From IMG/VR virus record IMGVR_UViG_3300032087_000550, positions 1-54,901 of that record: a stretch of 54,901 nt of DNA, one strand, 5' to 3'. The notes under the pieces are model-generated. The model searched no databases, was not told where the DNA came from, and saw nothing but the letters and a program-made list of their open reading frames with translations. Source of the DNA: a virus (taxonomy: Duplodnaviria > Caudoviricetes). Shown piece by piece: positions 92-54,526 of the stretch. Made by a program: the position numbers and the translations under genes. Positions within the stretch are counted from its first letter, which is position 1, and the number at the start of each line of letters is the position of its first letter.

Positions 92-113
92 TCCCGCGAA
101 CCCGTTGGGTAAC

Positions 114-138
114 AAAAAGGCTCCCGACGAGGGGAGCC
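114..138 (-). terminator. Rho-independent terminator on the - strand
   Basis: On - strand: GGCTCCC-ctcgtc-GGGAGCC followed by TTTTT. Confidence 0.75.
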
Positions 139-191
139 GCGAACCTATTAGGGGAACCGGGGGGTACATGGGTGTATTCCCGGCGGGTTGT
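114..191 (-). ncRNA. Candidate ~78-nt small RNA
   Basis: Bounded by the 226-198 promoter and the 138-114 terminator; no convincing ORF. Confidence 0.5.
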
Positions 192-197
192 AACGCC

Positions 198-226
198 AGT
201 GTACAGTCAAATTTCGCATTTGTCAA
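198..226 (-). promoter_or_regulatory. Leftward sigma70-type promoter
   Basis: TTGACA (226-221), 17 nt, TACACT (203-198). Confidence 0.75.
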
Positions 227-256
227 CCATTTTTTTAATTTTTGGCAACTTTTAGG

Positions 257-285
257 TTGACAGGGCGGGTAACCACCCCTAAACT
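257..285 (+). promoter_or_regulatory. Rightward sigma70-type promoter for the packaging operon
   Basis: TTGACA (257-262), 17 nt, TAAACT (280-285); T-tract upstream. Confidence 0.75.
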
Positions 286-313
286 AATGGGTTGCAAGGA
301 GATTTTCCCCCCA

Positions 314-508
314 ATGTTCAAAGCTGTGTTGCTGGTTTGCGCCTTGGCCACGCCTAATGAGTGCCTCCAGTTCGAAGATACGCGTGGTCCGTACGCCACC
401 TACAAGGAATGCACTGATCGTGTACAGGAAATGGCAGCAAATGTGACTAGCCTGTTCCCCGTTCCGGCAACTTACAGCTTCAAATGCAGTGTTGGAGAGC
501 AAACGTGA
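314..508 (+). CDS. Hypothetical small Cys-containing protein (64 aa, MFKAVLLVC...)
   Basis: AAGGAG SD at 296-301; stop overlaps the GTG of terS. Confidence 0.65.
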   Translation: MFKAVLLVCALATPNECLQFEDTRGPYATYKECTDRVQEMAANVTSLFPVPATYSFKCSVGEQT

Positions 509-909
509 ACCTTTTACCCCAGCAAAACAACCGGAAACCCGCCCTCACGGACAAACAGGAAGCCTTTCTCGACGCCCTGTTCGACAATGGTGGTAACGTA
601 CGGGCCGCAGCGGAGGTTGCCGGGTACTCTGAGGGTTCGATCAAGTGGCTCAAGGACCGGTTAGCCGACGAAATCATCGAACGGACCAAAACCGTGTTAG
701 CGGGACAGTCCCTCAAGGCCGCGAACAAGCTGGTTAGCCTCGTGGACGCCGTCGATATCGAACGTGGGGACGATTTACGGATGAAAGCAGCCGAATCTAT
801 CCTCAACCGCGTAGGTTTAGGCCGACAGGACACCATGAACCACAATGTCACGGCGGTTCACGGCGTTGTCCTGCTGCCTCCAAAAAAAGAAGTAGTCATA
901 GATGGCTAA
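505..909 (+). CDS. terS: Terminase small subunit (HTH)
   Basis: LTDKQEAFLDALF...AAEVAGYS HTH typical of TerS; immediately upstream of terL; GTG start after GGAG. Confidence 0.8.
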   Translation: MNLLPQQNNRKPALTDKQEAFLDALFDNGGNVRAAAEVAGYSEGSIKWLKDRLADEIIERTKTVLAGQSLKAANKLVSLVDAVDIERGDDLRMKAAESILNRVGLGRQDTMNHNVTAVHGVVLLPPKKEVVIDG

Positions 910-2638
910 CAAGCCACGTAAACGTGTCCTAGTCCCCCCTGACCCGGCGACCGTGGACAAGCCGCGAACTCGCGGCAGACCCAAGAAAGACCCGAACCAA
1001 CCTAAAGCCGAGTACAAGCTCAGTGACAGGGAGCGGGCACGACGTTCCGTCCAAATGCGTCTTCGTAACGCGAAGAAGTCGGCAGCTACCCAGCAACGCA
1101 AAGCCGAATATAAGAAAAGCAAGGTCAAGAAACTGACCGAATCTGCAGACAAGATAGAGAAGGCACTACAGGGTGAAAAGACTAGAGTCGTTGATCAGGG
1201 CGATCTTACAAACCTGCCGGACGCAGTTGGCGATCTGGTGGATGGTAGCCCGGTTATCTTCAAGCCAAATCCGGGACCACAAGAAGAATTTCTTAGCGCG
1301 TCTGAACGAGACGTACTCTACGGCGGTGCTGCCGGTGGTGGAAAGAGCTTTGCACTTCTTGCTGATCCGCTACGTTATTGCCACAATTCTAATCATCGTG
1401 GTCTTCTTCTCCGCCGCACACTGGATGAACTTACCGAACTAATCGATAAGTCGAAGCAGCTATACCCCAAAGCGTTCCCGGGTGCAGTCTTTCGAGAAGC
1501 AAAGTCCACGTGGGTTTTCCCATCTGGGGCAACCATGTGGTTCACTTATCTCGACAGGGACAAGGACGTGACCCGCTTTCAGGGTCAGGCGTTCAACTGG
1601 ATCGGTATCGACGAGATTACACAGTATCCCACACCGTACGTTTGGGATTACCTTCGTTCACGACTCCGTTCGACGGACCCGGAACTCCAGCAACAGTTGT
1701 GTATGCGCTGCACAGCCAACCCCGGAGGAGTGGGTGGTTGGTGGGTCAAGAAGATGTACATCGACCACCGCGAGGCAAACAAGCCTTTTGGTGCCTACGA
1801 CTTAGAAACCGGAAAAACATTTGTGTGGCCTGATGGTCACGAAAAAGCAGGTCAACCGCTGTTCTATCGCAAGTTTGTTCCCGCGCGGTTGACTGATAAT
1901 CCCTACCTGATGGCAGATGGCCAGTACGAGGCTATGCTCAGGTCGCTCCCGGATGTCGAGCGTAGACGACTCCTAGAAGGGGATTGGGACGTGGCGGAGG
2001 GAGCGGCCTTCCCCGAATTTTCAAGGGTGCGACACGTTGTCGAACATTTCGAACTACCTACCAATTGGCCACGTATACGAGCGGCGGACTACGGCTATGC
2101 GAGTCCATCGTGCGTTCTTTGGGGGGCTATTGACTGGGATAACAATATCTGGGTTTATCGCGAGTTGTATGCAAAGCACTTGACAGCAGAGCAGTTGGCT
2201 GATAAAATACTAGAAGCAGAAGAGTTAGACCCACTTCCACACTACAATGTTCTAGACTCTTCTTGCTGGAACAAGACCGGGTTCGGCCCGTCCATTGCGG
2301 AGACAATGATGCGGGCGGGTGTTAGGTGGACGCCATCAGACCGTAACCGTCTACAAGGAAAAATGGAAGTTCACAGGCGGCTTTCTGACGACCCTTACAC
2401 CAACGAACCACGTCTAAGAATATTCTCCTCGTGCAAGCACACCATAGCTCAACTATCGGGCATACCTCTCTCCAAAACCAACAGTGAAGATGTAGACACG
2501 AAGGCAGAGGATCATGCGTACGATGCGTTGCGCTACATGGTGATGACGCGCACGTCTGGATATCAATCTATACACAAATCACTTCAGGGCATCAAGGATC
2601 AGGCGTTTAAGCCGTTTGATGCCACATTTGGATACTGA
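902..2638 (+). CDS. terL: Terminase large subunit with basic N-terminal extension
   Basis: Walker A YGGAAGGGKS, Walker B WIGIDE, motif III TANPGG, nuclease motifs ADYG and EDHAYDALRY. Confidence 0.95.
   Translation: MANKPRKRVLVPPDPATVDKPRTRGRPKKDPNQPKAEYKLSDRERARRSVQMRLRNAKKSAATQQRKAEYKKSKVKKLTESADKIEKALQGEKTRVVDQGDLTNLPDAVGDLVDGSPVIFKPNPGPQEEFLSASERDVLYGGAAGGGKSFALLADPLRYCHNSNHRGLLLRRTLDELTELIDKSKQLYPKAFPGAVFREAKSTWVFPSGATMWFTYLDRDKDVTRFQGQAFNWIGIDEITQYPTPYVWDYLRSRLRSTDPELQQQLCMRCTANPGGVGGWWVKKMYIDHREANKPFGAYDLETGKTFVWPDGHEKAGQPLFYRKFVPARLTDNPYLMADGQYEAMLRSLPDVERRRLLEGDWDVAEGAAFPEFSRVRHVVEHFELPTNWPRIRAADYGYASPSCVLWGAIDWDNNIWVYRELYAKHLTAEQLADKILEAEELDPLPHYNVLDSSCWNKTGFGPSIAETMMRAGVRWTPSDRNRLQGKMEVHRRLSDDPYTNEPRLRIFSSCKHTIAQLSGIPLSKTNSEDVDTKAEDHAYDALRYMVMTRTSGYQSIHKSLQGIKDQAFKPFDATFGY
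2180..2208 (+). promoter_or_regulatory. Internal sigma70-type promoter in terL, upstream of the recombinase-like gene
   Basis: TTGACA, 17 nt, TAAAAT with extended TG. Confidence 0.6.
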
Positions 2639-4422
2639 TGGCAGATATCACTACAAAGATTGGCGATCAAACTCTAACCATTCGTGAAGCTATCGAAGGC
2701 GCAGGTAAGTCTTTGAGTACCTCGAAGGGTGCGCCTAATGCGTTTGCTAAGAACATCGAAGCAGCAGGTCTGTCTTTGGATGACCCATGGTCTAGCTTGA
2801 AAGAGGAGTCTTTTCTTCGTAAACTAAATGAAGTTGGGACAGAAGGAAACTTCGTCACACTTCTCAGTGTAGAAAATGAGCTTCGTCGTCTCTCCAGTGT
2901 GGGGGATATTGCTTATCCATATTCTGATGTGTTTAGCCCTGAAGGAAAAGCCAGAGGATTAAAACTAGAAAAAGCACAACAGGCACGTCGAACCAAGAAG
3001 TTCAAAGGTGTTCCCGAGGCCAAGAAATCTCTCACTGCTTTGACAGAGGGCATTTCTGTTATCAAAGACCCGCGAACTCGCGCTGCTGTTGCTTTCAACG
3101 CTCTAGTCCCTCTACGTCCCGGAGAAGTTGCCGGAATTAAAGTGGAGGACATCGACTTCGAAACCGGCTCTTTTAAGGAGTCGTATCGTCGTGTGAACAA
3201 GATTCGCAATGAGCTTGACCTCCCGGAAGTTGCGTTAGAAATTATACGAGACGCTGCTGAAAAGGCCCGGGCAGAGGGTCGGGAATACGTGTTTCTTGAT
3301 AAGGATGTGAAAGACCCAAAGAAAGCAACCAGCAACTTTGTGAATAAGATGACCACCGGTATGAAGATGTCGGGAGGTGTCATTGAAAGATTCAAGCCAT
3401 TTGAAAAGGCAATGGGTCGTGCGGTTGCCGGTGCTTCTGACATTCGTAAAATCATTCCCTCTATTATTGCAAGTGAATTAGGATACACCACAGAAGCTAG
3501 TGCGATTATGGGTCACGCATCCTTCGATGAAACCATCGACGGCATGAAAGGTATTACTCGCAAGCACTACGTTTCTCAAATTATCACCGACGAAGGCACC
3601 ACAGCAAAGCAAGCCCTTCGTGCCCTACAAAACATGTACGGCGAAGTTCTTGGCTTGTCAACTCTAAACGAGATTCCTGCTTCTATGGGGGTCGATGCTG
3701 CTGGTCTGACTACTGAAGGTTCCGCCCGCCTAGCCGTCATTCCTAAAGGTTCCGAAATTGTCGGCACACAGGTTCAGGGGAAACTGACTGACGCCGACCT
3801 CGACCTGATAGAACAAGTGCGAGAAGCACGTAAGCAAGAACTGCGACTGCAAGCTGCAACGTCAGAAGAAGCGGCCTTACAAAAAGAAATTGCTATCGGT
3901 GCCCTTGATGAAGAGGCAGAGCGTGTAAAAGCACAAAAGCGTTTGCGTAAGCAAGAAATCTATCAAGAAGAAAAAGCTAAACGCGCTCCTTCTGACGAAA
4001 CTGTACCCGCATCCAATCCCGAAGCCCGCGCTTCCCTCGAACGCCGTGGGTTTGACGCTAAAGGTATGGCAGCAGCCATCAATAAACATCTGGGCAGGGC
4101 GGGTAAGCTTGTAGGTGCGGCAGCGGTTGTTGAAACTGCGCGACAGTTTATAGAAGCACCCCTCGAAACAGGAGCAGCAGTAGCTTCCGAAATAGGCTTG
4201 GAAAAAGCCTTGGGCCTCGGTCCTTCCGTCGCTGCTACCGTAGCACTGACACCCACGCCCACAGCCGGACCCGAACTAACCCAACCGCAACCCCGTCTGC
4301 GTTTCGATGACGATGACTTCCAGTATCGCGACGAGGGATTTGTGAGCAAAGAACAAGCTGACCGGAACCGCGAGGAAGCCGCCGGTCGAGCCGCCGAACC
4401 TATAGGCTTCCTTTCACCATAA
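2638..4422 (+). CDS. Tyrosine-recombinase-fold protein with long coiled-coil and Ala/Gly-rich C-terminus (594 aa)
   Basis: PLR160PGEVAGIKVEDIDF box I, K188, EYVF patch, S267DIR270, MGH293, RKHY311. Confidence 0.8.
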   Translation: MADITTKIGDQTLTIREAIEGAGKSLSTSKGAPNAFAKNIEAAGLSLDDPWSSLKEESFLRKLNEVGTEGNFVTLLSVENELRRLSSVGDIAYPYSDVFSPEGKARGLKLEKAQQARRTKKFKGVPEAKKSLTALTEGISVIKDPRTRAAVAFNALVPLRPGEVAGIKVEDIDFETGSFKESYRRVNKIRNELDLPEVALEIIRDAAEKARAEGREYVFLDKDVKDPKKATSNFVNKMTTGMKMSGGVIERFKPFEKAMGRAVAGASDIRKIIPSIIASELGYTTEASAIMGHASFDETIDGMKGITRKHYVSQIITDEGTTAKQALRALQNMYGEVLGLSTLNEIPASMGVDAAGLTTEGSARLAVIPKGSEIVGTQVQGKLTDADLDLIEQVREARKQELRLQAATSEEAALQKEIAIGALDEEAERVKAQKRLRKQEIYQEEKAKRAPSDETVPASNPEARASLERRGFDAKGMAAAINKHLGRAGKLVGAAAVVETARQFIEAPLETGAAVASEIGLEKALGLGPSVAATVALTPTPTAGPELTQPQPRLRFDDDDFQYRDEGFVSKEQADRNREEAAGRAAEPIGFLSP

Positions 4423-4437
4423 TTGGGGAGAAAACCG

Positions 4438-6780: not shown

Positions 6781-6814
6781 AGAGAACCACGAGGCACTTG
6801 TGAAGAATGGTTGA
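6590..6814 (+). CDS. Small helical head-module protein overlapping the portal 3' end in another frame (74 aa)
   Basis: Amphipathic helices (ELRQLQGKAALLEMLLKLKE); its stop overlaps the start of the next gene. Confidence 0.7.
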   Translation: MYSKEQARLVGPLVKNPQVWTGLEEYLQALKEQTFKGLVTAQSESELRQLQGKAALLEMLLKLKENHEALVKNG

Positions 6815-9266
6815 CCGCATCCCCCTCTTTCCTGACGACGATACTTATCCGGGCTACACTCCTACAGAGTTTGAGACCGTGACTCCGGATGAGTATAGGG
6901 CAGGGCAGGTCAATTACTTCACACAGGTTCTCGGGCCTGAGACAGCCAGCTTGGAAGAAGAAACGGGCATCGAAGTTACTAAAGCCCCTGATGTTGATGG
7001 AGAAGAAACACGGGAAGAAGACCCGAGTTCAAAAATTCCAGACGCTATTCTTGGAGCTACACGGCCCACACTAGATGGCGGTGTCAGTGAAGCCTATGAG
7101 ATATCGTTCGATATTCCGGATATCGGTGGTAGCTATTCAGACTATTTAAAATCGGCAAACAAAACAGATCGCCTCTCTCTCGTAGAGAACATCTTTGAAC
7201 CGGGGTTCGATCCGGATGCCAGCATGGAATTGGGAAAGGGCATTTCGGGAGCATTCAAGGAAGGCGCGGAAAGAGTCAAGGCGTTTCCGGATAAACTAAA
7301 AAGCCCGGATGCTAAGGCTCGTACTGGAATAACGGGACTTGCAGCGGCAACTGGCCTTATTCCGGGTGCTATTGTAAGCGGGTTGCTAGGCGGCACCCGA
7401 GTGAAGAATGCTTTCAACAAAAACAGCTTTAGACCCCCCGGCTTGCTCGGTGGCATAGCTGACATGGTTCACTCGAAACAGTACGGGGATATGCAAGCCA
7501 TTCGAGCGGCCAGAATTGCGAACCCGTACGGCGACACGGGCTTCGCCATGTCTCTTGGTGGTTTTGGTGTTACCCGCGCTCCCGGCTCTAGAGTGTACAC
7601 GGGTAACACTGGCGGGATGGACATCGAAACCCTGACAAGTCTAGAGGCAATCAGTAAAGGTTACGATCCTATCAAGGGTCGTTACAATGCTCTCGATCCA
7701 AGTAAGAGCCAGACTGTGGTTGCTTCGGGGGGCATACAGGTGTCTAACAATCCGATGGACGGGTTCATTCGAGCTAACGGCACCGTCTATGACCCGAGGT
7801 TTATTGGCGCAGGAGCTTCGGCGGCGTACGCTCGTAGCGATATGATTGAGAAGGCCGCGCGGAGCTTTGGAATTTCAAGTGATGAAATGAGTGACGCGGT
7901 TGCTGTTGCTCGTTCTGGTCGAATGACCGTATCACAGGCTGTTCAGCAAATTCAATTTAAGAATGCTCGGGCCGTGCAACAGCAGAAGATAGCCGCCTAC
8001 AATCAGCAAAAGCAGGAGCAGCAAAGGGCGGGGCAGCAGCTTACGATTGCCCAAGCTAGGCCGGGTGAAATGCCTCAGAGCGAAGCCGCTGCAAAGGCAC
8101 AGCGGGAAGATAGTGGCGACGAGGGCTTCGACTATTCGAGCGCGGGTGTTGATGACGAAGGTGATGCTGCCCCAGACTACGATAGCAGCGGTTTGACTTC
8201 GTGGGCTTTGGGTGGTCGCATCGGTCTTGCGATGGGCGGCGCACCCGGAATGGCGTCCGGCTTTGTAGAACGTCCGCCTAGCCAAGTCCCCGAGGGCGAA
8301 ACCGTAGCCGATGATAAAAAGACCCAGCTTCCGGAGGGTGCGTTTGTTATCAACGCCGCAGCAGCCGAGTTTATGGGAACCAACGACGTTCGCACGATGC
8401 TGTTAGATGCACATAAAGAAGCACTTAGGCAGGGATTAGCAGTTGACAAACAAGGAAACGGTGCTAAACTAATAGACGTGGCGATATCTCGCGGTGAAGT
8501 CGTAGTCGCCCCACACCTCGCTAAAATAATTGGCTATGATCGCTTGACCAAGATCAACAATCGCGGCAAGCCCGAAACCCGCGAACGCATCGAAGAGAAC
8601 GGTCAGGCTCCGGCACCAGCCACTATGCAAGCCGCTACAGGTATGCTGGTTTCTGGTCAGATGGTGAACCCCACCCTCACACAACAAGACCTACGCGAAC
8701 AGGGTTTTCTTTCCAAAGAATACGCCCCGATGCCGGACACCCCCATCCCGTCCCGTGACGAAGATACCTTCTTCGGCTACACCGTGGGTGAATTGAAAAA
8801 AGCTATCAAGGATGTTGAGATTAAGGGTTTTGAAAAAGACCCGTACATTATCACAGGTGCTGCACGAGGAAAAAACAAATCGTCTGCCTTCGGACCTATG
8901 CAAGTTACCTATTCTACCCTAGAAGATTTTCAAAAGCGAAGCCCAGAATACAAACTCTTAGATAACGACAAAAAAGAATACGTCAACGACTTGATACAGC
9001 AGGGTCGTGATGTAGTCAACTATCAAAAGTTTGGCGCAGTCTATCGAAACGGCAAGCGTCAAAAAGTTTCTAAAGAACAAGCCAAAAATTTGAAGGCGTA
9101 CGGCAGCGGCACTATCGACCGCGCCCGCCACGAAGAACATTACGACGTTGTGGCTGATATGGTCCTTCGTCTTAAATTATCGGACCACGAGAACATTAAG
9201 GATGCTCTGGCTTCTTACGGCGAAGGCCCAGCCTATGCAAACAAGGTTCTCAAAGGTCTAGAATAA
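6807..9266 (+). CDS. Probable internal virion/ejection protein with C-terminal lysozyme-like (transglycosylase) domain
   Basis: IKDVE...SSAFGPMQVTYSTL...ALASYGEGPAYANKV; central GG..ADD..LPEGAFVINA..ISRGEVVV motif of tape-measure/pilot-like proteins. Confidence 0.65.
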   Translation: MVDRIPLFPDDDTYPGYTPTEFETVTPDEYRAGQVNYFTQVLGPETASLEEETGIEVTKAPDVDGEETREEDPSSKIPDAILGATRPTLDGGVSEAYEISFDIPDIGGSYSDYLKSANKTDRLSLVENIFEPGFDPDASMELGKGISGAFKEGAERVKAFPDKLKSPDAKARTGITGLAAATGLIPGAIVSGLLGGTRVKNAFNKNSFRPPGLLGGIADMVHSKQYGDMQAIRAARIANPYGDTGFAMSLGGFGVTRAPGSRVYTGNTGGMDIETLTSLEAISKGYDPIKGRYNALDPSKSQTVVASGGIQVSNNPMDGFIRANGTVYDPRFIGAGASAAYARSDMIEKAARSFGISSDEMSDAVAVARSGRMTVSQAVQQIQFKNARAVQQQKIAAYNQQKQEQQRAGQQLTIAQARPGEMPQSEAAAKAQREDSGDEGFDYSSAGVDDEGDAAPDYDSSGLTSWALGGRIGLAMGGAPGMASGFVERPPSQVPEGETVADDKKTQLPEGAFVINAAAAEFMGTNDVRTMLLDAHKEALRQGLAVDKQGNGAKLIDVAISRGEVVVAPHLAKIIGYDRLTKINNRGKPETRERIEENGQAPAPATMQAATGMLVSGQMVNPTLTQQDLREQGFLSKEYAPMPDTPIPSRDEDTFFGYTVGELKKAIKDVEIKGFEKDPYIITGAARGKNKSSAFGPMQVTYSTLEDFQKRSPEYKLLDNDKKEYVNDLIQQGRDVVNYQKFGAVYRNGKRQKVSKEQAKNLKAYGSGTIDRARHEEHYDVVADMVLRLKLSDHENIKDALASYGEGPAYANKVLKGLE
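8443..8470 (+). promoter_or_regulatory. Internal sigma70-type promoter upstream of scaffold/capsid genes
   Basis: TTGACA, 16 nt, TAAACT with extended TG. Confidence 0.5.
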
Positions 9267-10280: not shown

Positions 10281-11255
10281 ATGGCTTTTGATAGTGCATC
10301 AGGTTACAATAACCTGCCTTCCGGCAATTTCACGCCGGAAATCTTCAGTCAAAAGGTTCTTAAGTTCTTCCGTCGCGCTTCGGTTGCTGAAGACATCACG
10401 AATACCGACTACGCTGGCGAAATTGAGAACTATGGTGATACCGTTCGTATCATCAAAGAGCCTACCATCACCGTTTCTAGCTACTCTCGTGGCTCGGTGG
10501 TAAACCCGCAAGACCTCGCTGACGATCAGACCACTATGGTGGTTGATCAGGCGAACGCCTTTGCATTTAAGATTGACGACATCGAAGAGCGTCAGTCTCA
10601 CGTCAACTTCGAGGCACTTGCCACCTCTTCGGGTGCGTACTCCTTGAAGCGTAACTACGACGCCAACATCCTGACTGCTATGGCATCGGGTGCGGGTCTG
10701 ACCGGCGAGTCCGGTGCCGCTACTGCACAGATTTCCGACATCGGTACTCTGGGTTCGGCTCTCGACATCGGTGGTGCAACCACTCCGGGCGACACTGCAG
10801 TCAACACCATGCTGGTGATGGCTCAAGCCCTCGACGACCAGTCTGTTCCAGAAGAGAACCGCTGGTTCGTTGCTCCCCCGGCTTTCTACAAGCACCTGTT
10901 CTCGGCTGGTGCGAAGTTCGCAGAAGTTCAGGTTACTGGCGATGCGACTTCCCCCCTGCGTAACGGCCTTGTGTCGCTGGGCAACATTGCTGGCTTCCAG
11001 TGCTACAAGTCTACTGCCCTCGTCTCGAACGGCGGCACTGACCAAGTAACGCTGTCCGGTCTGGCAACCGACGGGACTGAGAACCTGCTTCTTGCCGGTC
11101 ACATGTCCTCAACGGCTACTGCTTCGCACATCGCGAAGACCGAAGTTGTCCGTTCGACTGAAACCTTCTCTGACATCGTTCGTGGTCTGCACGTTTTCGG
11201 TCGCAAAGTTCTGCGTCCGGAGGCAATGGTTCGCGGCGTTGTTAGCCTCGACTAG
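10281..11255 (+). CDS. Major capsid protein
   Basis: NFTPEIFSQKVL...DYAGEI..YGDTVRI...FSDIVRGLHVFGRKVLRPEA, HK97-fold podovirus coat pattern; strong codon bias. Confidence 0.9.
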   Translation: MAFDSASGYNNLPSGNFTPEIFSQKVLKFFRRASVAEDITNTDYAGEIENYGDTVRIIKEPTITVSSYSRGSVVNPQDLADDQTTMVVDQANAFAFKIDDIEERQSHVNFEALATSSGAYSLKRNYDANILTAMASGAGLTGESGAATAQISDIGTLGSALDIGGATTPGDTAVNTMLVMAQALDDQSVPEENRWFVAPPAFYKHLFSAGAKFAEVQVTGDATSPLRNGLVSLGNIAGFQCYKSTALVSNGGTDQVTLSGLATDGTENLLLAGHMSSTATASHIAKTEVVRSTETFSDIVRGLHVFGRKVLRPEAMVRGVVSLD

Positions 11256-45604: not shown

Positions 45605-47123
45605 GCCAGTTTTTTCCCATTTTTAATTCTATTCCTACAGGCATGTCATAGCGGATGCCGTAGCGACGTTCCGTCTCCTGCGGTATGGCTAGCATACTTT
45701 TCGCCATGATCTCAATGCACTGCTTCTCTTCTCCCGGGAACACGTCCATAACAATCGAGTCGTGTACCGTGTTGCAAATCACGGACTGTAACCCACTGTC
45801 TTTCAACAGATTATGCAGCATCACAAGAGATAAGGGCAGCAGGTCTGCGGTGGCGAACCCCTGCACGGGATAGTTGCAGATAGCTGTCCGGTTCGTGGCG
45901 GTGCCCCATTCGGTCCAGCGGGTTCCCGGGAAACAATACTGTCGCCCGGATGGAAGCTTGATGTGGCTCTTGGTTACGGCGTCCCGCTGCAAGAGTTCGT
46001 GCCAGTCACTCACGCCGCTGTACTTCTGCTTAAAGGCACGGTAGTACCGCTTCTGATCTTCGGTGCCGCTCACGCCGCCGTAGAGGGGCTTGAAGGTGTG
46101 TGCCTTGGCCTCTTGGCGGGTACAGCCAATGATGCTGGCGGTATAGCTGTGAACGTCCGTGCCAGCCTCGACATCGTTGCGGATGCCCTCATCCTTTGCA
46201 AGGAACCCGGCAACCCGAAACTCTAGCTGTGCGTAGTCACCCTCAAGGATCGAACCACCCTCGAACCGGCTTTCGACAGCGCGGCGGATAATGAAGGTCG
46301 AGCCGCGTGGCATGTTCTGGAAGTTCGGGTTGCGGGACGACAGGCGACCGGTAGCTGTCACACACTGCATATATTCTGTGTGTATGAAGCCGTTCGGGTC
46401 CATGTTGTTTTCCATGCCCTCGACAAAGGATCGCAGGTAGGTTCGCACAGCAGAGTAACGAACGTACGCCTCGGCAAACTCCCGGGCGTCACCCCGCAGG
46501 TCTGTCATCATTTCTTCGAGCGTTGTCTTGTCAGTCTTGAAACCGCCCGCAGCCGTATCGAATGTGTCGCGGGGAACGAGCTTGAACCCGGCAACCTCTC
46601 CAGTACTATGGTAGCGGACGCCAGAGCCGCCACAGGTCTTGCAGATACGCACGGCCTTACCGGGGGTGCCATCCTTGCGTGGCGGAGTGTAGCGGCCCTT
46701 ACCAGAGCAGTCCGGGCACTGTTCACCGATAGTCTTGTGCAAGATTGTGGTCTCATTGAGGATGTGCCGCTTGAACTCGCCCTTTGCCATGCGGGTTCGC
46801 TGCTTGGGCTTCTTGGTTGCGCCGCGAACCTCATGACCGAGATTGAAGATAGCAGCCCACCGCTTCTTGTCCTTGATCGCACAGGAGTAAAACAGGCGGG
46901 AGCGGTCATCTGGACTGTCGAGGTTGACCGGTGTGTCTCCCATCGCGTTCGCGGCAAGTTCCTGCAAGCGGCGTTCTAGGGTGAACAGTTCGTCCTCGTA
47001 CTCCTTGCGGATGTCGGCAAGGGTTGTCCGGTTGATCTTGATGCCGTTGCGTTCGATGTCCGCAAGAACGTCCGTGACTTCAAGCGACAGACGCAAAGTG
47101 GGCAAGAGAGCTTGGTTCTTCAT
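45576..47123 (-). CDS. polA: Family A DNA polymerase, polymerase domain with DnaJ-type Zn-finger insert
   Basis: TATGRLSS, motif A DYAQLEFR, motif B RQEAKAHTFKPLYG (Phe at the 762-equivalent position), motif C VHDS; CPDCSGKG and CKTCGGSG; own GAGGA SD. Confidence 0.92.
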   Translation of the reverse strand: MKNQALLPTLRLSLEVTDVLADIERNGIKINRTTLADIRKEYEDELFTLERRLQELAANAMGDTPVNLDSPDDRSRLFYSCAIKDKKRWAAIFNLGHEVRGATKKPKQRTRMAKGEFKRHILNETTILHKTIGEQCPDCSGKGRYTPPRKDGTPGKAVRICKTCGGSGVRYHSTGEVAGFKLVPRDTFDTAAGGFKTDKTTLEEMMTDLRGDAREFAEAYVRYSAVRTYLRSFVEGMENNMDPNGFIHTEYMQCVTATGRLSSRNPNFQNMPRGSTFIIRRAVESRFEGGSILEGDYAQLEFRVAGFLAKDEGIRNDVEAGTDVHSYTASIIGCTRQEAKAHTFKPLYGGVSGTEDQKRYYRAFKQKYSGVSDWHELLQRDAVTKSHIKLPSGRQYCFPGTRWTEWGTATNRTAICNYPVQGFATADLLPLSLVMLHNLLKDSGLQSVICNTVHDSIVMDVFPGEEKQCIEIMAKSMLAIPQETERRYGIRYDMPVGIELKMGKNWLDLEEVLTV

Positions 47124-48902: not shown

Positions 48903-49668
48903 CGGCTGTCATTTCCTTCACATCTTTATCTAAGATAACTAAGCTGGTAGGCCGGATGGCCTGTAACCTGCGAACCAACCCTAATGCCTTCTTTGTGGCG
49001 TCCTTGTCAAGAGCCACGACGAGACGATCATAGGTTCGCAGCGTCGGTATGTACGAGTCTACAAGACTGGTTCCGAGCAAGGCTATGCCCGAAAGAATAT
49101 CAGAAACACTGCAAGCACTAGCACAATCTTCCAGAAGAACACCGATACGTCCGCTGCCGCAAACGAAAGGATGACCTGACTTTCCATATCTCCACCATTT
49201 TGGTTTGACATTTTTGTCCAAGGCTCGGCCCGCCGCATCGACGATCCGGTTGTTGTGACGAACTAGATAGACGACCCGCTTCGACCGGAAGTCGTACCGG
49301 ATGTCGGCCAAGCCGTTGCGATACGCCTCGTAAGCATTGACCCGGCGCACATAGGATTCGGCATCGGGTTCGCGGGACAACGAGACGAACGTGTCTGGCA
49401 ACTCGAACCCCCCCTCATAAGTGTCGGGTCTTGGGTTCGCGGGCTTGACCTTGGCCAACAGGGGATGGTATGGAGTGTCCTTGCGGATGCGAAACCCGGT
49501 GCGGCCCTTCACATCGCAGTCGGCGTGGAAGCAGTACCAGAGGCGTTCGCCATTCACCTCGGACACGCTGAACGTGTTCTTGTGTGAACAGGCAGGGCAA
49601 TCCATCCGCAAGCTTCCGGAGCCGCCGATTGGCAAATCTTCAACGAAGTCTTTGATCCAGTCAGTCAT
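48865..49668 (-). CDS. DNA primase (Zn finger plus TOPRIM)
   Basis: CPAC...CFHADC; EDCASA...GTSL...ALDKDA. Confidence 0.9.
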   Translation of the reverse strand: MTDWIKDFVEDLPIGGSGSLRMDCPACSHKNTFSVSEVNGERLWYCFHADCDVKGRTGFRIRKDTPYHPLLAKVKPANPRPDTYEGGFELPDTFVSLSREPDAESYVRRVNAYEAYRNGLADIRYDFRSKRVVYLVRHNNRIVDAAGRALDKNVKPKWWRYGKSGHPFVCGSGRIGVLLEDCASACSVSDILSGIALLGTSLVDSYIPTLRTYDRLVVALDKDATKKALGLVRRLQAIRPTSLVILDKDVKEMTADERKRTFDKYIT

Positions 49669-49675
49669 GGGTTCG

Positions 49676-49749
49676 GAGATACAGCATATCGGAAACTCGG
49701 TCAAGACAAAAAAAAATCGCTTGACAGGTTCGCGGCTACAGATTACTCT
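49676..49749. promoter_or_regulatory. Back-to-back divergent sigma70 promoters sharing an A-tract
   Basis: - strand: TTGACC (49704-49699), 17 nt, TATCTC; + strand: TTGACA (49721), 17 nt, TACTCT. Confidence 0.75.
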
Positions 49750-49783
49750 CTAGTTACAATATACCCCTATAGGTTTACCTGTT

Positions 49784-49924
49784 ATGAATAAAATCAATAG
49801 AATAAACCCTATAGCTAAACAGCTACCTAAACTGGGTAAAAGAATTGTTCCGAATAAAAAACGGACAAAAGAAGACAAACGAATGACAAAAGAGGTACGG
49901 GATGCCAAGACCGCCAAAGATTGA
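49784..49924 (+). CDS. Small basic protein (46 aa; not in ORF track)
   Basis: MNKINRINPIAKQL...RIVPNKK, first ORF after the promoter. Confidence 0.5.
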   Translation: MNKINRINPIAKQLPKLGKRIVPNKKRTKEDKRMTKEVRDAKTAKD

Positions 49925-50117
49925 TGAACCGACAAAAACCTACAACCTGTTGATGACAAAAGCTCAGTATGACAAGCTGGCAACCTATTCTGAATCTATG
50001 CAAAAAAGAAGCTTGGAACAGGTGGCGGTTGCTGACTTGATACGAGATGCCATCGATATCTACTTGGAGATTTTAGATGAGGAAGCTGAAGCTGTTCAAG
50101 GATCGGAGGGGCAATGA
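49902..50117 (+). CDS. Ribbon-helix-helix (CopG/Arc-like) regulator
   Basis: KTYNLLM beta strand, helix A (KAQYDKL), helix B (VADLIRDAIDIYL); GAGGT SD. Confidence 0.7.
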   Translation: MPRPPKIDEPTKTYNLLMTKAQYDKLATYSESMQKRSLEQVAVADLIRDAIDIYLEILDEEAEAVQGSEGQ

Positions 50118-50349
50118 CCTCGTTCCGTACATCGTATCGAAAGATAACCGGCACGAAGTCGTCGCTCCGGTTTCATCCGTCCGGATCGGAGAGACAAATC
50201 GAGACGCTATCAAATCAAAGCACTGCGTCGATTACCCGCGATGGGTTGCCCTGTACGTCGGAAAAAATCACACCGAGTGTTCGAAGTGGCTTGACAAGTA
50301 CAAAACGTCCGTGCTAAAGCTTTGCATACCCTATGAGGTATCCTCGTAG
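50077..50349 (+). CDS. Hypothetical protein
   Basis: GGAG SD; overlaps the RHH gene. Confidence 0.6.
   Translation: MRKLKLFKDRRGNDLVPYIVSKDNRHEVVAPVSSVRIGETNRDAIKSKHCVDYPRWVALYVGKNHTECSKWLDKYKTSVLKLCIPYEVSS
50291..50320 (+). promoter_or_regulatory. Sigma70-type promoter for the sRNA
   Basis: TTGACA ... TGCTAAAGC. Confidence 0.6.
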
Positions 50350-50429
50350 GGGACATGGTTTCTCCTATGCCGTGTTGCTAAAAAACTTTGAGTGGGGCTG
50401 GTCTACGGGCTGGCCCCTCTTTTTTTTTT
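50327..50429 (+). ncRNA. Candidate ~100-nt trans-acting antisense sRNA
   Basis: 5' 10-bp hairpin (50329-50351), single-stranded seed TTTCTCCTATG, 3' terminator. Confidence 0.65.
50394..50429 (+). terminator. Rho-independent terminator with UNCG loop
   Basis: GGGGCTGGTC-TACG-GGCTGGCCCC followed by a T10 run. Confidence 0.85.
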
Positions 50430-50495
50430 GCTTGACGCACCATTTTATTATCTGTATCGATAAAGCATCGAAACGCCAGCAATGGAGATTGGCAC

Positions 50496-50738
50496 ATGGA
50501 AATTTCGAACGATCAACGATCTGACTTGCTCCGCATACACAACAAACTGCGTGACGTTATCAACTATGTAGATGACTGTCGTGATCTCAGTTTGTGTCAC
50601 CTACGGGATATCGAAGAGGCTATCTGCGTTCTTCATCAGGTGGGTGATTTCAAGCCGAAGAAGCGATATGATGGCAGCAGTGTGTGGTGGACTGAATGGG
50701 TGTTTTCTGAGGAGGTGCCGAGCGATGCGGACGATTGA
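50496..50738 (+). CDS. Hypothetical early protein
   Basis: GGAG SD; candidate promoter TTGACG at 50432. Confidence 0.65.
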   Translation: MEISNDQRSDLLRIHNKLRDVINYVDDCRDLSLCHLRDIEEAICVLHQVGDFKPKKRYDGSSVWWTEWVFSEEVPSDADD

Positions 50739-51060
50739 GAACCACGTCGAACGGTGCCACTGCTGGGAATGCGGCGGCTACGGCAAGAAGGAGTACGAAC
50801 AGGCTGTCCCGGACCCGATCCGGGGCGGCGACCTTGTCGGTGTCATGGGTGAGTGCGATGGCTGCGAGGGTAACGGCGAACTGTTACGCGCAAAGATAAC
50901 GCAGACAACGGTGATCCGTGCCTTCCTCACACAGGCGAAACACGCACTCGAAGACATCGAACTGCTTGACACAGACCTCGACGCCATCTATGGCAAAATA
51001 GATGACGCAATCGGTGACATCGAACGCTACGAACGAAAGGTAGGTACACGCGATGGGTAA
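50725..51060 (+). CDS. DnaJ-type Zn-finger protein
   Basis: CWECGGYG and CDGCEGNG; GGAGG SD. Confidence 0.75.
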   Translation: MRTIENHVERCHCWECGGYGKKEYEQAVPDPIRGGDLVGVMGECDGCEGNGELLRAKITQTTVIRAFLTQAKHALEDIELLDTDLDAIYGKIDDAIGDIERYERKVGTRDG

Positions 51061-51226
51061 AGTCAAAGACTGGGTAATCGAAATGGAAGAGGACGCATCG
51101 TACATGACGCGCCAAGAATTCGTTGACAAGCACGGCGAAACGGTTATCGAATTGTACGACGAACTTCAACTGAAATGGCAGTACGATCATGCAGAACCAC
51201 CCGAACCGGATTTCGATGCTGACTGA
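51053..51226 (+). CDS. Small acidic protein (57 aa; not in ORF track)
   Basis: MGKVKDWVIEMEEDA...; overlapping start and stop with neighbours. Confidence 0.65.
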   Translation: MGKVKDWVIEMEEDASYMTRQEFVDKHGETVIELYDELQLKWQYDHAEPPEPDFDAD

Positions 51227-51398
51227 ACCGGAGGACGATCCGCGTCTGGAAAGTGTGGCTGACAAATTGGCCACGCTTCGAAGACAAATCGATGACGCCG
51301 ACTGGCATGGCAAGCCGGTGACAAACGCGCAACGCCAAAGGGCAAGGCGGCTGACAAATCTTCTACACAATGGAATCTTGTGGGAGCCGACGTTTTGA
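51216..51398 (+). CDS. Hypothetical protein
   Basis: MLTEPEDD...DDADWHG...WEPTF. Confidence 0.55.
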   Translation: MLTEPEDDPRLESVADKLATLRRQIDDADWHGKPVTNAQRQRARRLTNLLHNGILWEPTF

Positions 51399-51598
51399 CG
51401 CTGACAAATGACAAACGCCAGACGCTGACAAAAACCAGACGAGACAAACCGACCACGCTTTCCCGCGAACACGTCTGCGATAATTGCGGCGAACCCGCCA
51501 TGACCAAGGAAGGGGACCGGCTCCGCTGTCCGTCGTGCTGGCTCCGGGAACAGGGCCGGAAAATAAAACCGCTTGACCACAGAGGATATCGCCCGTAA
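51380..51598 (+). CDS. Small Zn-ribbon protein (start uncertain)
   Basis: CDNC...CPSC. Confidence 0.55.
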   Translation: MGADVLTLTNDKRQTLTKTRRDKPTTLSREHVCDNCGEPAMTKEGDRLRCPSCWLREQGRKIKPLDHRGYRP

Positions 51599-51601
51599 CG
51601 T
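51573..51601 (+). promoter_or_regulatory. Sigma70-type promoter
   Basis: TTGACC, 17 nt, TAACGT. Confidence 0.55.
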
Positions 51602-51636
51602 GTTCCCATCGTTTTCTAACGAAGGGAAATAACGAC

Positions 51637-52254
51637 ATGGCAAAACAAGCCACACTATTTGATCATGAGTGCATGATCCACAACATCATCGCGGTTTACC
51701 GTGACGCCGACGCGGTACAGTATAACGAAGGCTTGGCATGGTATTCGGACGCACAAAAGGCGGCGCACGATATCGCGGTAAAATATGACATTGCCGTTTA
51801 TATTGTGGCTGCTGTCATCGCCGCGCTTTCACCCAATAACAAATGGTCCCGGAACGTGACAAACGCCGACGCATTGATCGGCGCGTTTATTCGGGGCGAC
51901 GGTATCGATTCCGTGAAAGTCTCGACCTACAACAAGATGAAGGCGAAAGCTTGGGACATTTTGGCGGCGCGTCCGGACTATGACGGCGCAAAAAAGATGC
52001 TTAAGGGACAAAAGATCACGTCCTTTTTTATGGACATTATGGGCGAGTTTAACGTCACGATTGACGGCCACGCCCGGAATATCGCTTACAATGAAAGAGT
52101 CGGATTGACCGACGACCGGACAAATATCGGCGTCCGTGAATACCGCGCACTTCAAGCCGCTTACGAAGAGGCGGCGCGACGTGTTGGCCTCATGCCCTAC
52201 CAGCTACAGGCGATCACTTGGCGCGTCTGGCGGGACCGGCACGGCATAACCTGA
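51637..52254 (+). CDS. HhH-GPD / DNA-glycosylase-fold-like protein
   Basis: GLAWY...AALSP...W..N...KITSF...VTIDGHA...LQAITW. Confidence 0.55.
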   Translation: MAKQATLFDHECMIHNIIAVYRDADAVQYNEGLAWYSDAQKAAHDIAVKYDIAVYIVAAVIAALSPNNKWSRNVTNADALIGAFIRGDGIDSVKVSTYNKMKAKAWDILAARPDYDGAKKMLKGQKITSFFMDIMGEFNVTIDGHARNIAYNERVGLTDDRTNIGVREYRALQAAYEEAARRVGLMPYQLQAITWRVWRDRHGIT

Positions 52255-52399
52255 CAAATCAGCCACGCTAAAAGATGACAAAAATGCCACGCTAAAAAAA
52301 TTGGAGCCAGTTTGCGCTATCGGGTTGCCGGGTCACTGGGGGACTGGGCGCGGGGCTGGCATCGGTTGCCGCGAGTCGCGGGGCGGCAATCACCGGGGG

Positions 52400-52436
52400 C
52401 GGGGCTGGCCAGCGGGCCGGTCCCGTTTCTTTTTTT
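52400..52436 (+). terminator. Rho-independent terminator
   Basis: CGGGGCTGGCC-agcg-GGCCGGTCCCG followed by TTTCTTTTTTT. Confidence 0.8.
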
Positions 52437-52516
52437 ACTTGCCTATGAATCTGGCCGGTGCCATGATTCGGGACCGGTCGGGATTGTCCCGGCCCGGCAA
52501 CCATAGGAGAAAAGCA

Positions 52517-53560
52517 GTGTTAGACATTGTGACGAGAACACCAAAAGCGATCGAGAATTGTAAAGCCCGGGGCGGCGACATCTGGTCAACCCATCATGAT
52601 ATTGGGGATTTCAGCCTATACGAGCGGTTTGCCAACTTTAAGAAAATCCCGATCGAAGCCTTAACCAGCAAGCCGGACCTGACGCCGTCCGGTGAGGTGA
52701 TCCGTGAAATAGTCACGCCGCAGCGCATGGAAAACTTTTCCGCCCTGCAAAATGTGGCGACCGGAAACGTGATCGACGTAACACCCTTTAAGGGTTCCTA
52801 TACTTTCAAGCCGCATCTTGAGGCCATGAAAGAACAGGCCGGGGTTGTCGAGCGGTCCCCGCTGCCGACTGGCAACGTCGAGGTGATCGACCGGATATTT
52901 GACGAGGGGGTGCGGGTTCACCGAACTATTTACTTTCACGAAATGACCCACGCCCTCGGCTACACCAAGAACGGTGAGGGTGACACGGTCCGCTGCCGGT
53001 TGGACATCTTCAACAGCGTCGATAAATCTTGGTCGCTTCAAGTATTTTCTGGTGCTTACCGCGACCTGTGCCGGAACACTTTGGTTTTTGGTGGTGAGAA
53101 GGCGTATCACACAAAGCAGAAACACACTGGCACCATGTCGAACGAAGCCGCGAACCAGAAGGCGGTCCTCGGCCTAGAAATGTGGGCGAACCAGTCCGAG
53201 CAGATGAAACTGTGGCGACAGGCTGAAATGACCAACCGCCAGTTTGCAGACGTGATCAAGCCGTTTTGCCGGAAGAACACCAAAGGCGCGGAACTCGAGG
53301 ACTCGATCTCGATCAACGAGCGGAAATTTAATTATCTGCTGGAGAGGTTCACCGAAGAAAAACGCGAACTGGGGGGAACCATGTGGGCCGCTTACAATGC
53401 CCTGACCCATTGGGCGACCCATCTGCCGGACGCGTACGAAAAAGGCCGGGCTGAAAAGAAACGGTTTGATCGGAACAATGAGGTCCGGCAGATCATCACC
53501 GGTCCGGATTGGCTCTATTTCGAGGGGCTGGCCGGACGTAAAGAAATGGCGGTGCAATAG
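52517..53560 (+). CDS. DUF932-family (TIGR03299-like) protein
   Basis: FNSVDKS.....GAYRDLCRN....KH T; GTMWAAYNALTHWATH; GTG start after ATAGGAG. Confidence 0.75.
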   Translation: MLDIVTRTPKAIENCKARGGDIWSTHHDIGDFSLYERFANFKKIPIEALTSKPDLTPSGEVIREIVTPQRMENFSALQNVATGNVIDVTPFKGSYTFKPHLEAMKEQAGVVERSPLPTGNVEVIDRIFDEGVRVHRTIYFHEMTHALGYTKNGEGDTVRCRLDIFNSVDKSWSLQVFSGAYRDLCRNTLVFGGEKAYHTKQKHTGTMSNEAANQKAVLGLEMWANQSEQMKLWRQAEMTNRQFADVIKPFCRKNTKGAELEDSISINERKFNYLLERFTEEKRELGGTMWAAYNALTHWATHLPDAYEKGRAEKKRFDRNNEVRQIITGPDWLYFEGLAGRKEMAVQ

Positions 53561-53640
53561 TGGAAGCTTTGTACGTCATCTATAGGACGATCACGGTTGT
53601 CCTGTTTTGCCTGATCATCTGGGCAATTTTCATTGGCTAA
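53560..53640 (+). CDS. 26-aa single-TM peptide (not in ORF track)
   Basis: MEALYVIYRTITVVLFCLIIWAIFIG; GTG overlaps the upstream TAG and exactly fills the gap. Confidence 0.55.
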   Translation: MEALYVIYRTITVVLFCLIIWAIFIG

Positions 53641-53659
53641 CACATAGGAGAAAAAAGCC

Positions 53660-54205
53660 ATGTCTAAGAACGCAAACGACATCACCAAGACCATCCCCGC
53701 AGCCCTTGCAACCAAGATCGGGAACCTGACCGACATTATGTCCGCCTGTTACGACAGCGGGTTCGAGGATGGGTTCCGGGATGGCAAACGCGAGGGATCG
53801 CAGCAGGAAGCAGAGAAGCGCCGCAACTTGGCGGAAGCTTGGAACGATCACGGCCAGCCGCTTGTTACTGGCATCAAGAACGCGATCGATCAAACCGACT
53901 TGCACGGTGAGCCGCTGCACGAATCCGGCCAGCAGCCGGTCCCGGCAACCCGCAAGCCCTACCGTGAGAAACTCAACCGGGGCCACGAGCGGGTTCGCAA
54001 GCTTCTCGACACGTCCAGCTATACAGCCGCGCCGACCTTGGCGGGGTTGCTTGGCTACTCCCGCGCCACCGTCCGGACCTACATGCGAGACCTGATGGCG
54101 CATGGTGTCGAGATCGAGACCAAGGCGTTGAAAGGTGGGTATCGCGGAAGCGGTCGGGGCCGTACTGGCTACCGTGTTGGCTACCGGCTTGCCAAGACCG
54201 GCTAA
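53660..54205 (+). CDS. Winged-HTH DNA-binding protein
   Basis: TLAGLLGYSRATVRTYMRDL..HGVEIET...GYRL (BirA-N-like wHTH); ATAGGAG SD. Confidence 0.7.
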   Translation: MSKNANDITKTIPAALATKIGNLTDIMSACYDSGFEDGFRDGKREGSQQEAEKRRNLAEAWNDHGQPLVTGIKNAIDQTDLHGEPLHESGQQPVPATRKPYREKLNRGHERVRKLLDTSSYTAAPTLAGLLGYSRATVRTYMRDLMAHGVEIETKALKGGYRGSGRGRTGYRVGYRLAKTG

Positions 54206-54266
54206 CCTGTGCTTAAACTATGGGGCGGGCGCTGTTGCCCGCCTCAACCAACTGGAGATTTAACCG

Positions 54267-54470
54267 ATGAAGCTTTCAATCCATGCCCATGCTAAAGACG
54301 TCTATAACGAGTCTCTGAAGGGGAATGCGGAAGTGATTTTGCATACCAACATTCACGACACATTCAAGACCGTCAAGCTTACCGGCACTGACCAGTATGG
54401 CCACCCGATCGATGTGATCGTTTACATGGACAAGAAACAGCCTTTGAAACGCACAAAGCGCATCGTCTAG
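54267..54470 (+). CDS. Hypothetical protein
   Basis: GGAG SD; last early ORF. Confidence 0.65.
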   Translation: MKLSIHAHAKDVYNESLKGNAEVILHTNIHDTFKTVKLTGTDQYGHPIDVIVYMDKKQPLKRTKRIV

Positions 54471-54526
54471 CCGCGAACCCATACCCTTCCCGGCGGGGCT
54501 AATAGCCGGGTTCCTCCCTTAACCTT

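Follow-up and report, generated by a model that had tools for sequence, protein, structure and literature searches.

A selectively maintained octamer in a clade of HMO-2011-type marine podophages and its possible role as a Chi-like signal

The genome recorded in IMG/VR as IMGVR_UViG_3300032087_000550 raises the question of why a marine phage should carry a single eight-letter word about ten times as often as chance or protein coding would predict. The window analyzed in this study spans the complete record (54,901 bases), which by its predicted gene content and gene order is an HMO-2011-type podophage. It contained 32 exact copies of GTTCGCGG/CCGCGAAC, 16 on the + strand and 16 on the − strand (Table 1). 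An earlier note on this sequence had counted at least 31 copies; all 31 positions listed there were right, and only the + strand copy at 41037 had been missed. Our results established an excess of this word that is independent of coding, conserved and turned over in a lineage-specific manner and concentrated in one genome region. GTTCGCGG is a DNA-level signal that was built up and is maintained by selection in a single clade of marine podophages of the HMO-2011 type.

GTTCGCGG was the commonest octamer of the window and had the top z-score at Markov orders 3 and 4. Base composition predicted 1.97 copies, in line with the earlier estimate of about 2. Dinucleotide-preserving shuffles yielded a mean of 2.49 copies (standard deviation 1.42) and a maximum of 6, and 32 copies were reached in none of 100 shuffles. 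The copies expected from Markov models of orders 1–4 were 2.6, 2.6, 3.3, and 6.1, respectively. The excess therefore held at orders 3 and 4 of the Markov check suggested previously, but it shrank at order 5, with 15 copies expected, and further at order 6, with 27. This shrinkage is taken as a limit of the check and not as a refutation, because on 55 kb such models learn from 6- and 7-mers that are largely supplied by the motif, such as GTTCGCG (44 copies) and TTCGCGG (36 copies). The enrichment also survived the codon-shuffled nulls. Synonymous-codon shuffles of 65 heuristic open reading frames (ORFs; n = 300) gave a mean of 6.5 copies (standard deviation 2.0, maximum 13), and codon permutation (n = 300) gave a mean of 4.6 and a maximum of 10. 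The reversed control word GGCGCTTG was found once in the window.

The single-base variants of GTTCGCGG occurred 0–12 times each, compared with 32 for the word itself. Its specificity was sharp at positions 1–5 and 8 and looser at positions 6–7, of which the variants GTTCGAGG, GTTCGTGG, and GTTCGCAG had 12, 12, and 11 copies, respectively. Similar to Chi-type words, which are short (5–8 nt), non-palindromic and sharply defined, GTTCGCGG is a sharply defined, non-palindromic 8-mer. The flanks showed a preference for C at −3, G or A at −2, G at −1 and G or C after the word, and 16 of the 32 copies read GGTTCGCGG followed by G or C. A LexA-type box, GTTC-N7-GTTC, was considered from these flanks, and no copy fits it. 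Relative to ORFs, 11 copies were sense (3, 4, and 4 in frames 0, 1, and 2), 19 were antisense (3, 8, and 8), and two, at 49728 and 54471, lay outside ORFs, which agrees with the earlier description of copies in genes on both strands and in non-coding DNA. GTTCGCGG occupies all six reading frames, and no peptide or codon pair accounts for its excess. The copy at 49728 had also been assigned to a promoter spacer; however, the sigma-70 scan listed no promoter spanning it.

A search of IMG/VR with the large terminase (TerL) identified 80 related loci with identities of 79–95%. GTTCGCGG was dense (0.3–1.9 per kb) in 24 of these loci and essentially absent from 29. For instance, L014 had 16 copies in 8.4 kb, L004 had 11 in 9 kb, and L023 had 15 in 21.7 kb. 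In the motif-bearing relatives, the sites of the window were intact in 42 of 76 cases, compared with 18,934 of 105,964 (18%) for other octamers. In the motif-lacking relatives, they were intact in 3 of 43 cases, compared with 14% for other octamers. Moreover, the positions of GTTCGCGG turned over between sub-lineages while its density was maintained. Since sites are retained in motif-bearing kin and lost in motif-lacking kin, and since positions shift with density kept, GTTCGCGG behaves as a unit of selection that lineages acquire, retain or lose. With enrichment above a codon-preserving null, use of six frames and retention in motif-bearing relatives, the previous suggestion of a selected DNA-level signal is supported. 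Nothing in this analysis, however, supported a site for a host nucleoid or segregation protein, which had been offered as one identity of that signal.

The copies were also concentrated. On the circular map, a motif-dense zone (Table 1) runs from the primase gene across the early ORFs of small size and terS to the large-terminase start. In the window alone this concentration was not significant (scan statistic, p = 0.13). In 27 motif-bearing relatives, 109 copies were found in 68,138 bp upstream of TerL and 44 copies in 165,637 bp from TerL onward. The densities of 1.6 per kb upstream and 0.27 per kb downstream of the terminase genes differ about six-fold, a contrast that is descriptive only because the 27 loci are related. 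In addition, 22 of the 32 copies were scattered genome-wide outside the 6.5-kb zone around terS, different from pac repeats, which are confined to the packaging site in or beside terS.

Orientation was less informative. The nine consecutive − strand copies noted previously, from 51463 across the record ends to 8579, were confirmed as a run, and runs of nine or more arose in 1.6% of orientation shuffles. The best split of the circle into two arcs accommodated 25 of the 32 copies (p = 0.065). Around the terminase gene of 28 relatives, 75 copies were on the + strand and 82 on the − strand. The closest relatives shared the − bias near the terminase genes, with many sites inherited, whereas more distant motif-bearing relatives were mixed. 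Given the inherited sites, the mixed orientation at greater distance and the overall 75:82 ratio, polarity was not accepted; the signal around the end junction was weak (p 0.016–0.065) and was not reproduced in distant relatives.

The excess might have no function and reflect biased mutation or repair, or else a lineage-wide oligonucleotide style like that of the word families enriched in certain bacterial lineages. Consistent with this possibility, sub-words and neighbors of GTTCGCGG are common as well (GTTCGC with 89 copies and GGTTCG with 86, besides the 12 each of GTTCGAGG and GTTCGTGG), several other GT-initial words are enriched, and most of the excess is accounted for by Markov models of orders 5 and 6. 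However, intact sites were three times as frequent as for other octamers in motif-bearing kin and fell below other octamers in motif-lacking kin. The six-fold regional contrast in density, the five-fold enrichment over synonymous shuffles and the sharp specificity at positions 1–5 and 8 also argue against a functionless word, which we consider very improbable.

Eight cultured phages of RCA-lineage strains of Rhodobacteraceae were compared over 30–50 kb of each. The word GCGCTGG(G) was the top or second octamer in four of them, on both strands. There were 17 copies in CRP-2 (L086; 0.46 expected), 10 in CRP-207 (L088) and, in the form GGCGCTGG, 14 in CRP-3 (L087), all three being HMO-2011-type phages. 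CRP-4 (L089), which belongs to Zobellviridae and is unrelated to the HMO-2011 type, had 7 copies (0.09 expected). The expected numbers for the four phages ranged from 0.1 to 1.6. CRP-6 had 4 copies, and CRP-1, CRP-5, and CRP-7 had 0–2. CRP-4 and CRP-5 are members of one genus, of which only CRP-4 has the word, and the sites of CRP-4 are in other genes than those of CRP-2, except for the reductase. GCGCTGG(G) was absent from HMO-2011, whose host belongs to SAR116, was found twice in the window, and had 15 copies in the 705 kb of the window and its 80 relatives. Neither HMO-2011 nor CRP-1 had a strong word. Hyper-abundant octamers can thus track the host rather than the phage. A word common to unrelated phages of one host group and missing from close kin is the pattern predicted for an optional signal that is specified by the host.

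Among bacterial genomes, the RCA word GCGCTGGG was 3–9 times as frequent as its reversed control in many Pseudomonadota, generically, and it showed a 33:10 skew over the initial 400 kb of G179, a probable member of Rhodobacteraceae. In G400, another probable member represented by 20 stretches (L406–L425), the most robustly over-represented well-populated octamer was AGGCGCTG/CAGCGCCT, with 177 copies compared with 55–92 expected at Markov orders 3–5. This octamer overlaps GGCGCTGG of CRP-3; its enrichment was not seen in G179.

The accumulation of host Chi sites in phage genomes appears to be the closest documented phenomenon to the excess of GTTCGCGG. The 50 Chi sites of phage P1 are distributed over both strands, with 31 on the top strand, and are densest where the ends of its headful-packaged, terminally redundant DNA fall; Subramaniam & Smith propose that RecBCD uses Chi to circularize the injected DNA (bioRxiv 10.1101/2021.07.08.451572). 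Similar to P1, the window has an octamer far above chance, on both strands and densest by the packaging region. Different from P1, whose word is the proven Chi of E. coli with a known enzyme, GTTCGCGG is only a candidate Chi-like word. In addition, the dense zone of the window is upstream of the terminase genes, and this phage is a marine bacterial podovirus of the lytic type. Two further phages are the lambdoid LLS, with 20 of 23 Chi sites in one orientation relative to cos, and MD8, with 32 of 32 (PMC12315714). They share with the window a concentration of copies toward one genome region and the abundance of a near-variant of the main word, and the count of MD8 is the same; they lack a recombination module, however, whereas the window phage has a Cas4-like exonuclease. 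The pattern of GTTCGCGG resembles that of P1 more than those of LLS or MD8.

The enzyme of Alphaproteobacteria is AddAB, for which a survey reports no identified Chi word in this class (PMC8022716). GTTCGCGG ends in GCGG, like the AddAB Chi words AGCGG (PMC3925955) and GAAGCGG (bioRxiv 10.1101/2021.07.08.451572), which is a weak lead. Neither a methyltransferase nor a known anti-RecBCD (Gam-like) protein turned up among the 40 ORFs that were scanned against PHROGs, 20 of which were also scanned against Pfam. The different hyper-abundant words of other lineages of this phage type, which are described below, and the density peak upstream of TerL, which L059 repeats with its own word, also speak for a Chi-like reading. 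Given the precedent of Chi accumulation in phages, the closer likeness to P1 and the use of AddAB by Alphaproteobacteria, we tentatively rank first the reading that GTTCGCGG is specified by the host and acts, much as Chi does in P1, as a Chi-like signal to an enzyme of the AddAB/RecBCD type, although we hold it as a possibility rather than a probability. We infer specification by the host from the analogy with the cultured roseophages, and likewise infer the type of the reading enzyme. If so, GTTCGCGG would be the recognition sequence of the AddAB/RecBCD-type helicase-nuclease of the host. The enzyme would enter phage DNA wherever injection, breakage or packaging leaves a free end, and on meeting GTTCGCGG would switch from degradation to recombination-promoting resection, which would spare the phage genome and aid its circularization or recombination. 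Copies on both strands would serve ends of either polarity, and the densest zone, beside the packaging genes, would be where the ends of virion DNA fall, as proposed for P1.

The earlier note had already listed a Chi-like site among its options; precedent and the analogous word of the roseophages favor it. Several observations weigh against it. There was no robust polarity either in the window (16:16 strand use; p = 0.065 for two arcs) or in its relatives (75:82), whereas Chi in LLS and MD8 is almost wholly on one strand. The phage encodes two junction-cutting endonucleases (endonuclease I and endonuclease VII) in addition to the Cas4-like exonuclease and is therefore not clearly of the class without a Rec module. 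The other enriched words of the window, which are described below, are not explained by one Chi word. GCGCTGGG was not specifically enriched in either G400 or G179. The motif-bearing TerL rows are nearly all in two clades, which a phage-encoded determinant would explain equally well.

The search for a host adds to these points. The genomes searched were 1,147 distinct bacterial genomes, including, in overlapping sets, 401 Pseudomonadota and 391 from the family and 396 from the class of G040, which is probably a member of Rhodobacteraceae, as judged from the 90% identity of its MetK with the Ruegeria pomeroyi protein. The unpublished G374, G817, and G1001 are in the set, and no result rests on them. 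A specific excess of GTTCGCGG was found in none of the 1,147 genomes, a sample that is thin relative to bacterial diversity, and the host was not identified. The highest density was 0.25 per kb in G079 (7.1 Mb; 0.08 per kb for the reversed control), followed by 0.20 per kb in G539 and 0.16 per kb in G962 (control ratio 8). Three candidate hosts were rejected. G182 had 58 copies compared with 42 expected at order 3, 29 on each strand and without skew; G962 had 64 copies in 400 kb compared with 63.5 expected at order 3; and in G539 only 149 of 978 copies (15%) had the flanks of the phage sites, compared with 16 of 32 in the window. The TerL search of genome contigs found four distant loci only and no host. 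Moreover, among the matches listed in pair-pattern scans of IMG/VR, no other phage family had GTTCGCGG as a top word. Those matches were mostly high-GC contigs in which GTTCGCGG ranked 30–235, and the clearly dense ones among them were the HMO-type relatives L161, L191, and L258 only. The literature searched, supplements not covered, did not mention GTTCGCGG, CCGCGAAC or GCGCTGGG in connection with bacteria or phages, three matches being to unrelated matter, and that on HMO-2011 motifs and on Chi of alphaproteobacterial AddAB reported no such words.

On a TerL tree of 81 rows, 21 rows in a clade of 33 were motif-bearing, 10 were unclear and 2 lacked the word; in another clade, of 6 rows, 4 were motif-bearing and 2 unclear, and a clade of 30 had no motif-bearing row. 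This strong structure would be expected if GTTCGCGG were the site of a phage-encoded protein whose specificity varies by lineage and which serves packaging, replication or DNA organization. Candidates would be the small terminase (TerS; pac-type repeats), a replication initiator or primase, the helix-turn-helix (HTH) protein encoded at 53660–54205 or a site-specific nickase. The density peak beside and inside the small-terminase and early region, where the copy in terS was kept in 27 of 45 aligned relatives, is consistent with such a protein. So are the different words of other lineages that peak in the same region. In L059, GTACGTTT had 20 copies in 19 kb (contig positions 1889–17547), of which 16 were in the 10 kb upstream of TerL, a regional pattern that matches that of GTTCGCGG with a different word. 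The top octamer of L058 was TTGTCAGC/TTTTGTCA (12 copies in 21.7 kb), and a TTGTCAGC-type core was also top in L066. The absence of a specific excess from the sampled bacterial genomes, and from other phage families among the matches listed, points the same way. However, the 22 copies far from the packaging and early region are in structural and replication genes on both strands, and an analogous word is common to two unrelated families of cultured RCA phages. The identity of TerS did not separate bearing from lacking relatives: L008 and L011, the two lacking rows of the large clade, have no such word, yet their TerS is 75–78% identical to that of the window, like that of motif-bearing kin, and L046, L048, and L049 carry GTTCGCGG although their TerS is only 69% identical. 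Furthermore, the 10 kb upstream of TerL contained no gene restricted to motif-bearing contigs. We rank a phage-encoded reader second, on the basis of the clade structure, the regional peak and a word not found in our searches outside the phage clade, and regard it as a serious rival, though rather unlikely.

The host might also specify GTTCGCGG as something other than Chi, such as a signal of the DNA-uptake type, a mark of 'self' for defense or the site of a host DNA-binding protein. The argument from host-tracking applies here as it does to a Chi-like signal, and the equal use of both strands suits a signal read in the duplex better than a polar one. The DNA uptake sequences and uptake signal sequences of Neisseriaceae and Pasteurellaceae are short, non-palindromic, lineage-specific words, found on both strands at about 1 per kb and tied to competence. 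GTTCGCGG is likewise short, non-palindromic, lineage-specific and on both strands, and its 0.6–1.9 per kb is within the range of uptake sequences. However, uptake sequences are features of bacterial genomes and are not known outside these two families, whereas no genome in our sample had GTTCGCGG at such a density, the maximum being that of G079, or as a specific excess. In addition, a lytic phage would gain no evident benefit. We consider a host signal of this kind quite unlikely. HIP1 of cyanobacteria is a palindromic, hyper-abundant word of cellular genomes. GTTCGCGG resembles HIP1 in being the commonest octamer of its genome, with DNA-level enrichment across all frames. It differs from HIP1 in not being palindromic, in its restriction to phages of one clade and in having a regional peak.

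As to the preferred reading, a Chi-like signal specified by the host, a broader version of it would be that hyper-abundant octamers of marine podophages are Chi words of alphaproteobacterial AddAB, GCGCTGGG being that of RCA roseobacters and GTTCGCGG that of the uncultured host of this clade, which is conceivable but doubtful. If true, phage genomes could reveal the Chi words of uncultured bacteria, and the top octamer could assign hosts to abundant ocean viruses. HMO-2011-type phages are among the most abundant marine virus types, and most of them are without a known host. Selected words of the GTTCGCGG type, specific to a host or lineage and present in dozens of copies per genome, would be a possible route to alphaproteobacterial Chi words and a possible marker for host assignment, as well as a candidate handle on how these phages deal with the processing of DNA ends by their hosts. 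Cultured RCA phages and their hosts allow a direct test of the idea, as CRP-2 and CRP-4 have the analogous word and CRP-1 and CRP-5 do not.

Table 1. Copies of GTTCGCGG and other features of the window
Feature	Position	Strand	Remark
GTTCGCGG	94..101	-	antisense, ORF 21-260
GTTCGCGG	137..144	-	antisense, ORF 21-260
GTTCGCGG	719..726	-	antisense, small-terminase ORF 484-909; intact in 27/45 aligned relatives
GTTCGCGG	962..969	-	antisense, large-terminase ORF 902-2638
GTTCGCGG	3070..3077	-	antisense, ORF 2638-4422
GTTCGCGG	8579..8586	-	antisense, ORF 6807-9266
GTTCGCGG	11229..11236	+	sense, major head protein ORF 10281-11255
GTTCGCGG	13092..13099	+	sense, ORF 12656-13141
GTTCGCGG	14708..14715	-	antisense, ORF 14623-14985
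GTTCGCGG	15661..15668	+	sense, tail-fibre-like ORF 15405-17195
GTTCGCGG	17788..17795	+	sense, ORF 17321-19792
GTTCGCGG	18229..18236	+	sense, ORF 17321-19792
GTTCGCGG	20595..20602	+	sense, ORF 19792-22107
GTTCGCGG	27152..27159	+	sense, ORF 26365-28236
GTTCGCGG	30522..30529	-	antisense, ORF 29462-30790
GTTCGCGG	31017..31024	+	sense, ORF 30794-31273
GTTCGCGG	31776..31783	-	antisense, ORF 31276-31824
GTTCGCGG	33239..33246	-	antisense, ORF 31824-33977
GTTCGCGG	34196..34203	+	sense, ORF 33977-38635
GTTCGCGG	38704..38711	-	antisense, ORF 38619-38804
GTTCGCGG	40212..40219	+	antisense, ribonucleotide reductase ORF 40162-42090 (- strand)
GTTCGCGG	40791..40798	-	sense, ribonucleotide reductase ORF 40162-42090
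GTTCGCGG	41037..41044	+	antisense, ribonucleotide reductase ORF; absent from the earlier list
GTTCGCGG	43296..43303	+	antisense, endonuclease I ORF 43043-43537 (- strand)
GTTCGCGG	46822..46829	-	sense, DNA polymerase ORF 45576-47168 (- strand)
GTTCGCGG	46947..46954	+	antisense, DNA polymerase ORF 45576-47168
GTTCGCGG	49368..49375	+	antisense, primase ORF 48865-49704 (- strand)
GTTCGCGG	49435..49442	+	antisense, primase ORF 48865-49704
GTTCGCGG	49728..49735	+	between ORFs 48865-49704 and 49750-49983; no promoter called across
GTTCGCGG	51463..51470	-	antisense, ORF 51380-51598
GTTCGCGG	53148..53155	-	antisense, DUF932 ORF 52301-53560
GTTCGCGG	54471..54478	-	directly after ORF 54267-54470, outside called ORFs
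Motif-dense zone	49368..54901, continuing into 1-969 (circular map)		10/32 copies in ~6.5 kb
Small terminase	484-909		profile match (PHROGs/Pfam scans)
Large terminase (TerL)	902-2638		profile match
Portal or adaptor	4660-6780		profile match
Major head protein	10281-11255		profile match
Tail-fibre-like ORF	15405-17195		profile match
Endonuclease VII	39478-39981	-	replication block
Class II ribonucleotide reductase	40162-42090	-	replication block
Endonuclease I	43043-43537	-	replication block
Cas4-domain exonuclease	43808-44686	-	replication block
Family-A DNA polymerase	45576-47168	-	replication block
DnaB-like helicase	47664-48902	-	replication block
Primase	48865-49704	-	replication block
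MazG		-	replication block
Small ORFs	50077-54879		group of early ORFs
DUF932 ORF	52301-53560
HTH protein	53660-54205

The window is classified in IMG/VR as having direct terminal repeats. Positions 1–91 recur exactly, as a direct repeat, at 54811–54901. This repeat is an overlap from assembly, the genome being circular or permuted, and leaves a unique length of 54,810 bases; no copy of GTTCGCGG is inside it. In the contigs of 4 of the 23 public runs in which the window occurs, neither physical ends nor an integration junction was seen. The closest named phages were Roseobacter CRP phages, Pelagibacter HTVC phages and Puniceispirillum phage HMO-2011, with identities to the window of 46–57% for TerL and 36–47% for the polymerase. 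Tail-fiber searches among named phages gave no clue to the host, and scans of the window, in which the earlier note had proposed sRNA candidates at the copies 137 and 54471, found no tRNA gene and no Rfam match. The ORF at 2638–4422 (594 amino acid residues), which lies after the large terminase and before the portal, had a weak, sub-threshold match to the catalytic domain of tyrosine recombinases (PF00589, 22.4 bits, cut-off 27.1). It was found in some relatives only (L018, L022, L037, L050, and L079), whatever their motif status. Moreover, in contigs of two public runs of one sample labelled as a single organism, the 208 bases at 50503–50712 were swapped for 214 other letters, and the remainder of 43–54.8 kb was covered at low depth in the same runs.

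Besides GTTCGCGG, the window was enriched for GGTTGCCGGG (10 copies), GTTGCTGA (17), GTCTTTGA (14), and GTACGTTT (9), and it contained 8 copies of TTGTCAGC. Four copies with the TTGTCAGC core (TTTGTCAGC) are in one orientation within about 170 bp (51258–51431) among the small early ORFs and look like iterons or operator repeats. The 10 copies of the 10-mer GGTTGCCGGG, compared with 0.1–0.3 expected, were mostly outside structural genes. The second enriched word, GGTTGCCGG(G), was found at 14 sites (464, 616, 3127, 3424, 24005, 38746, 46207, 46588, 48344, 52324, 52494, 53942, 54723, and 54735), the last two of which are a tandem pair. This word (GGTTGCCGG(G)/GGTTGCCGGG) differs from GGTTCGCGGG only in two middle letters and was shared only with the closest relatives L002–L004, which had 4, 6, and 9 copies of GTTGCCGG, respectively.

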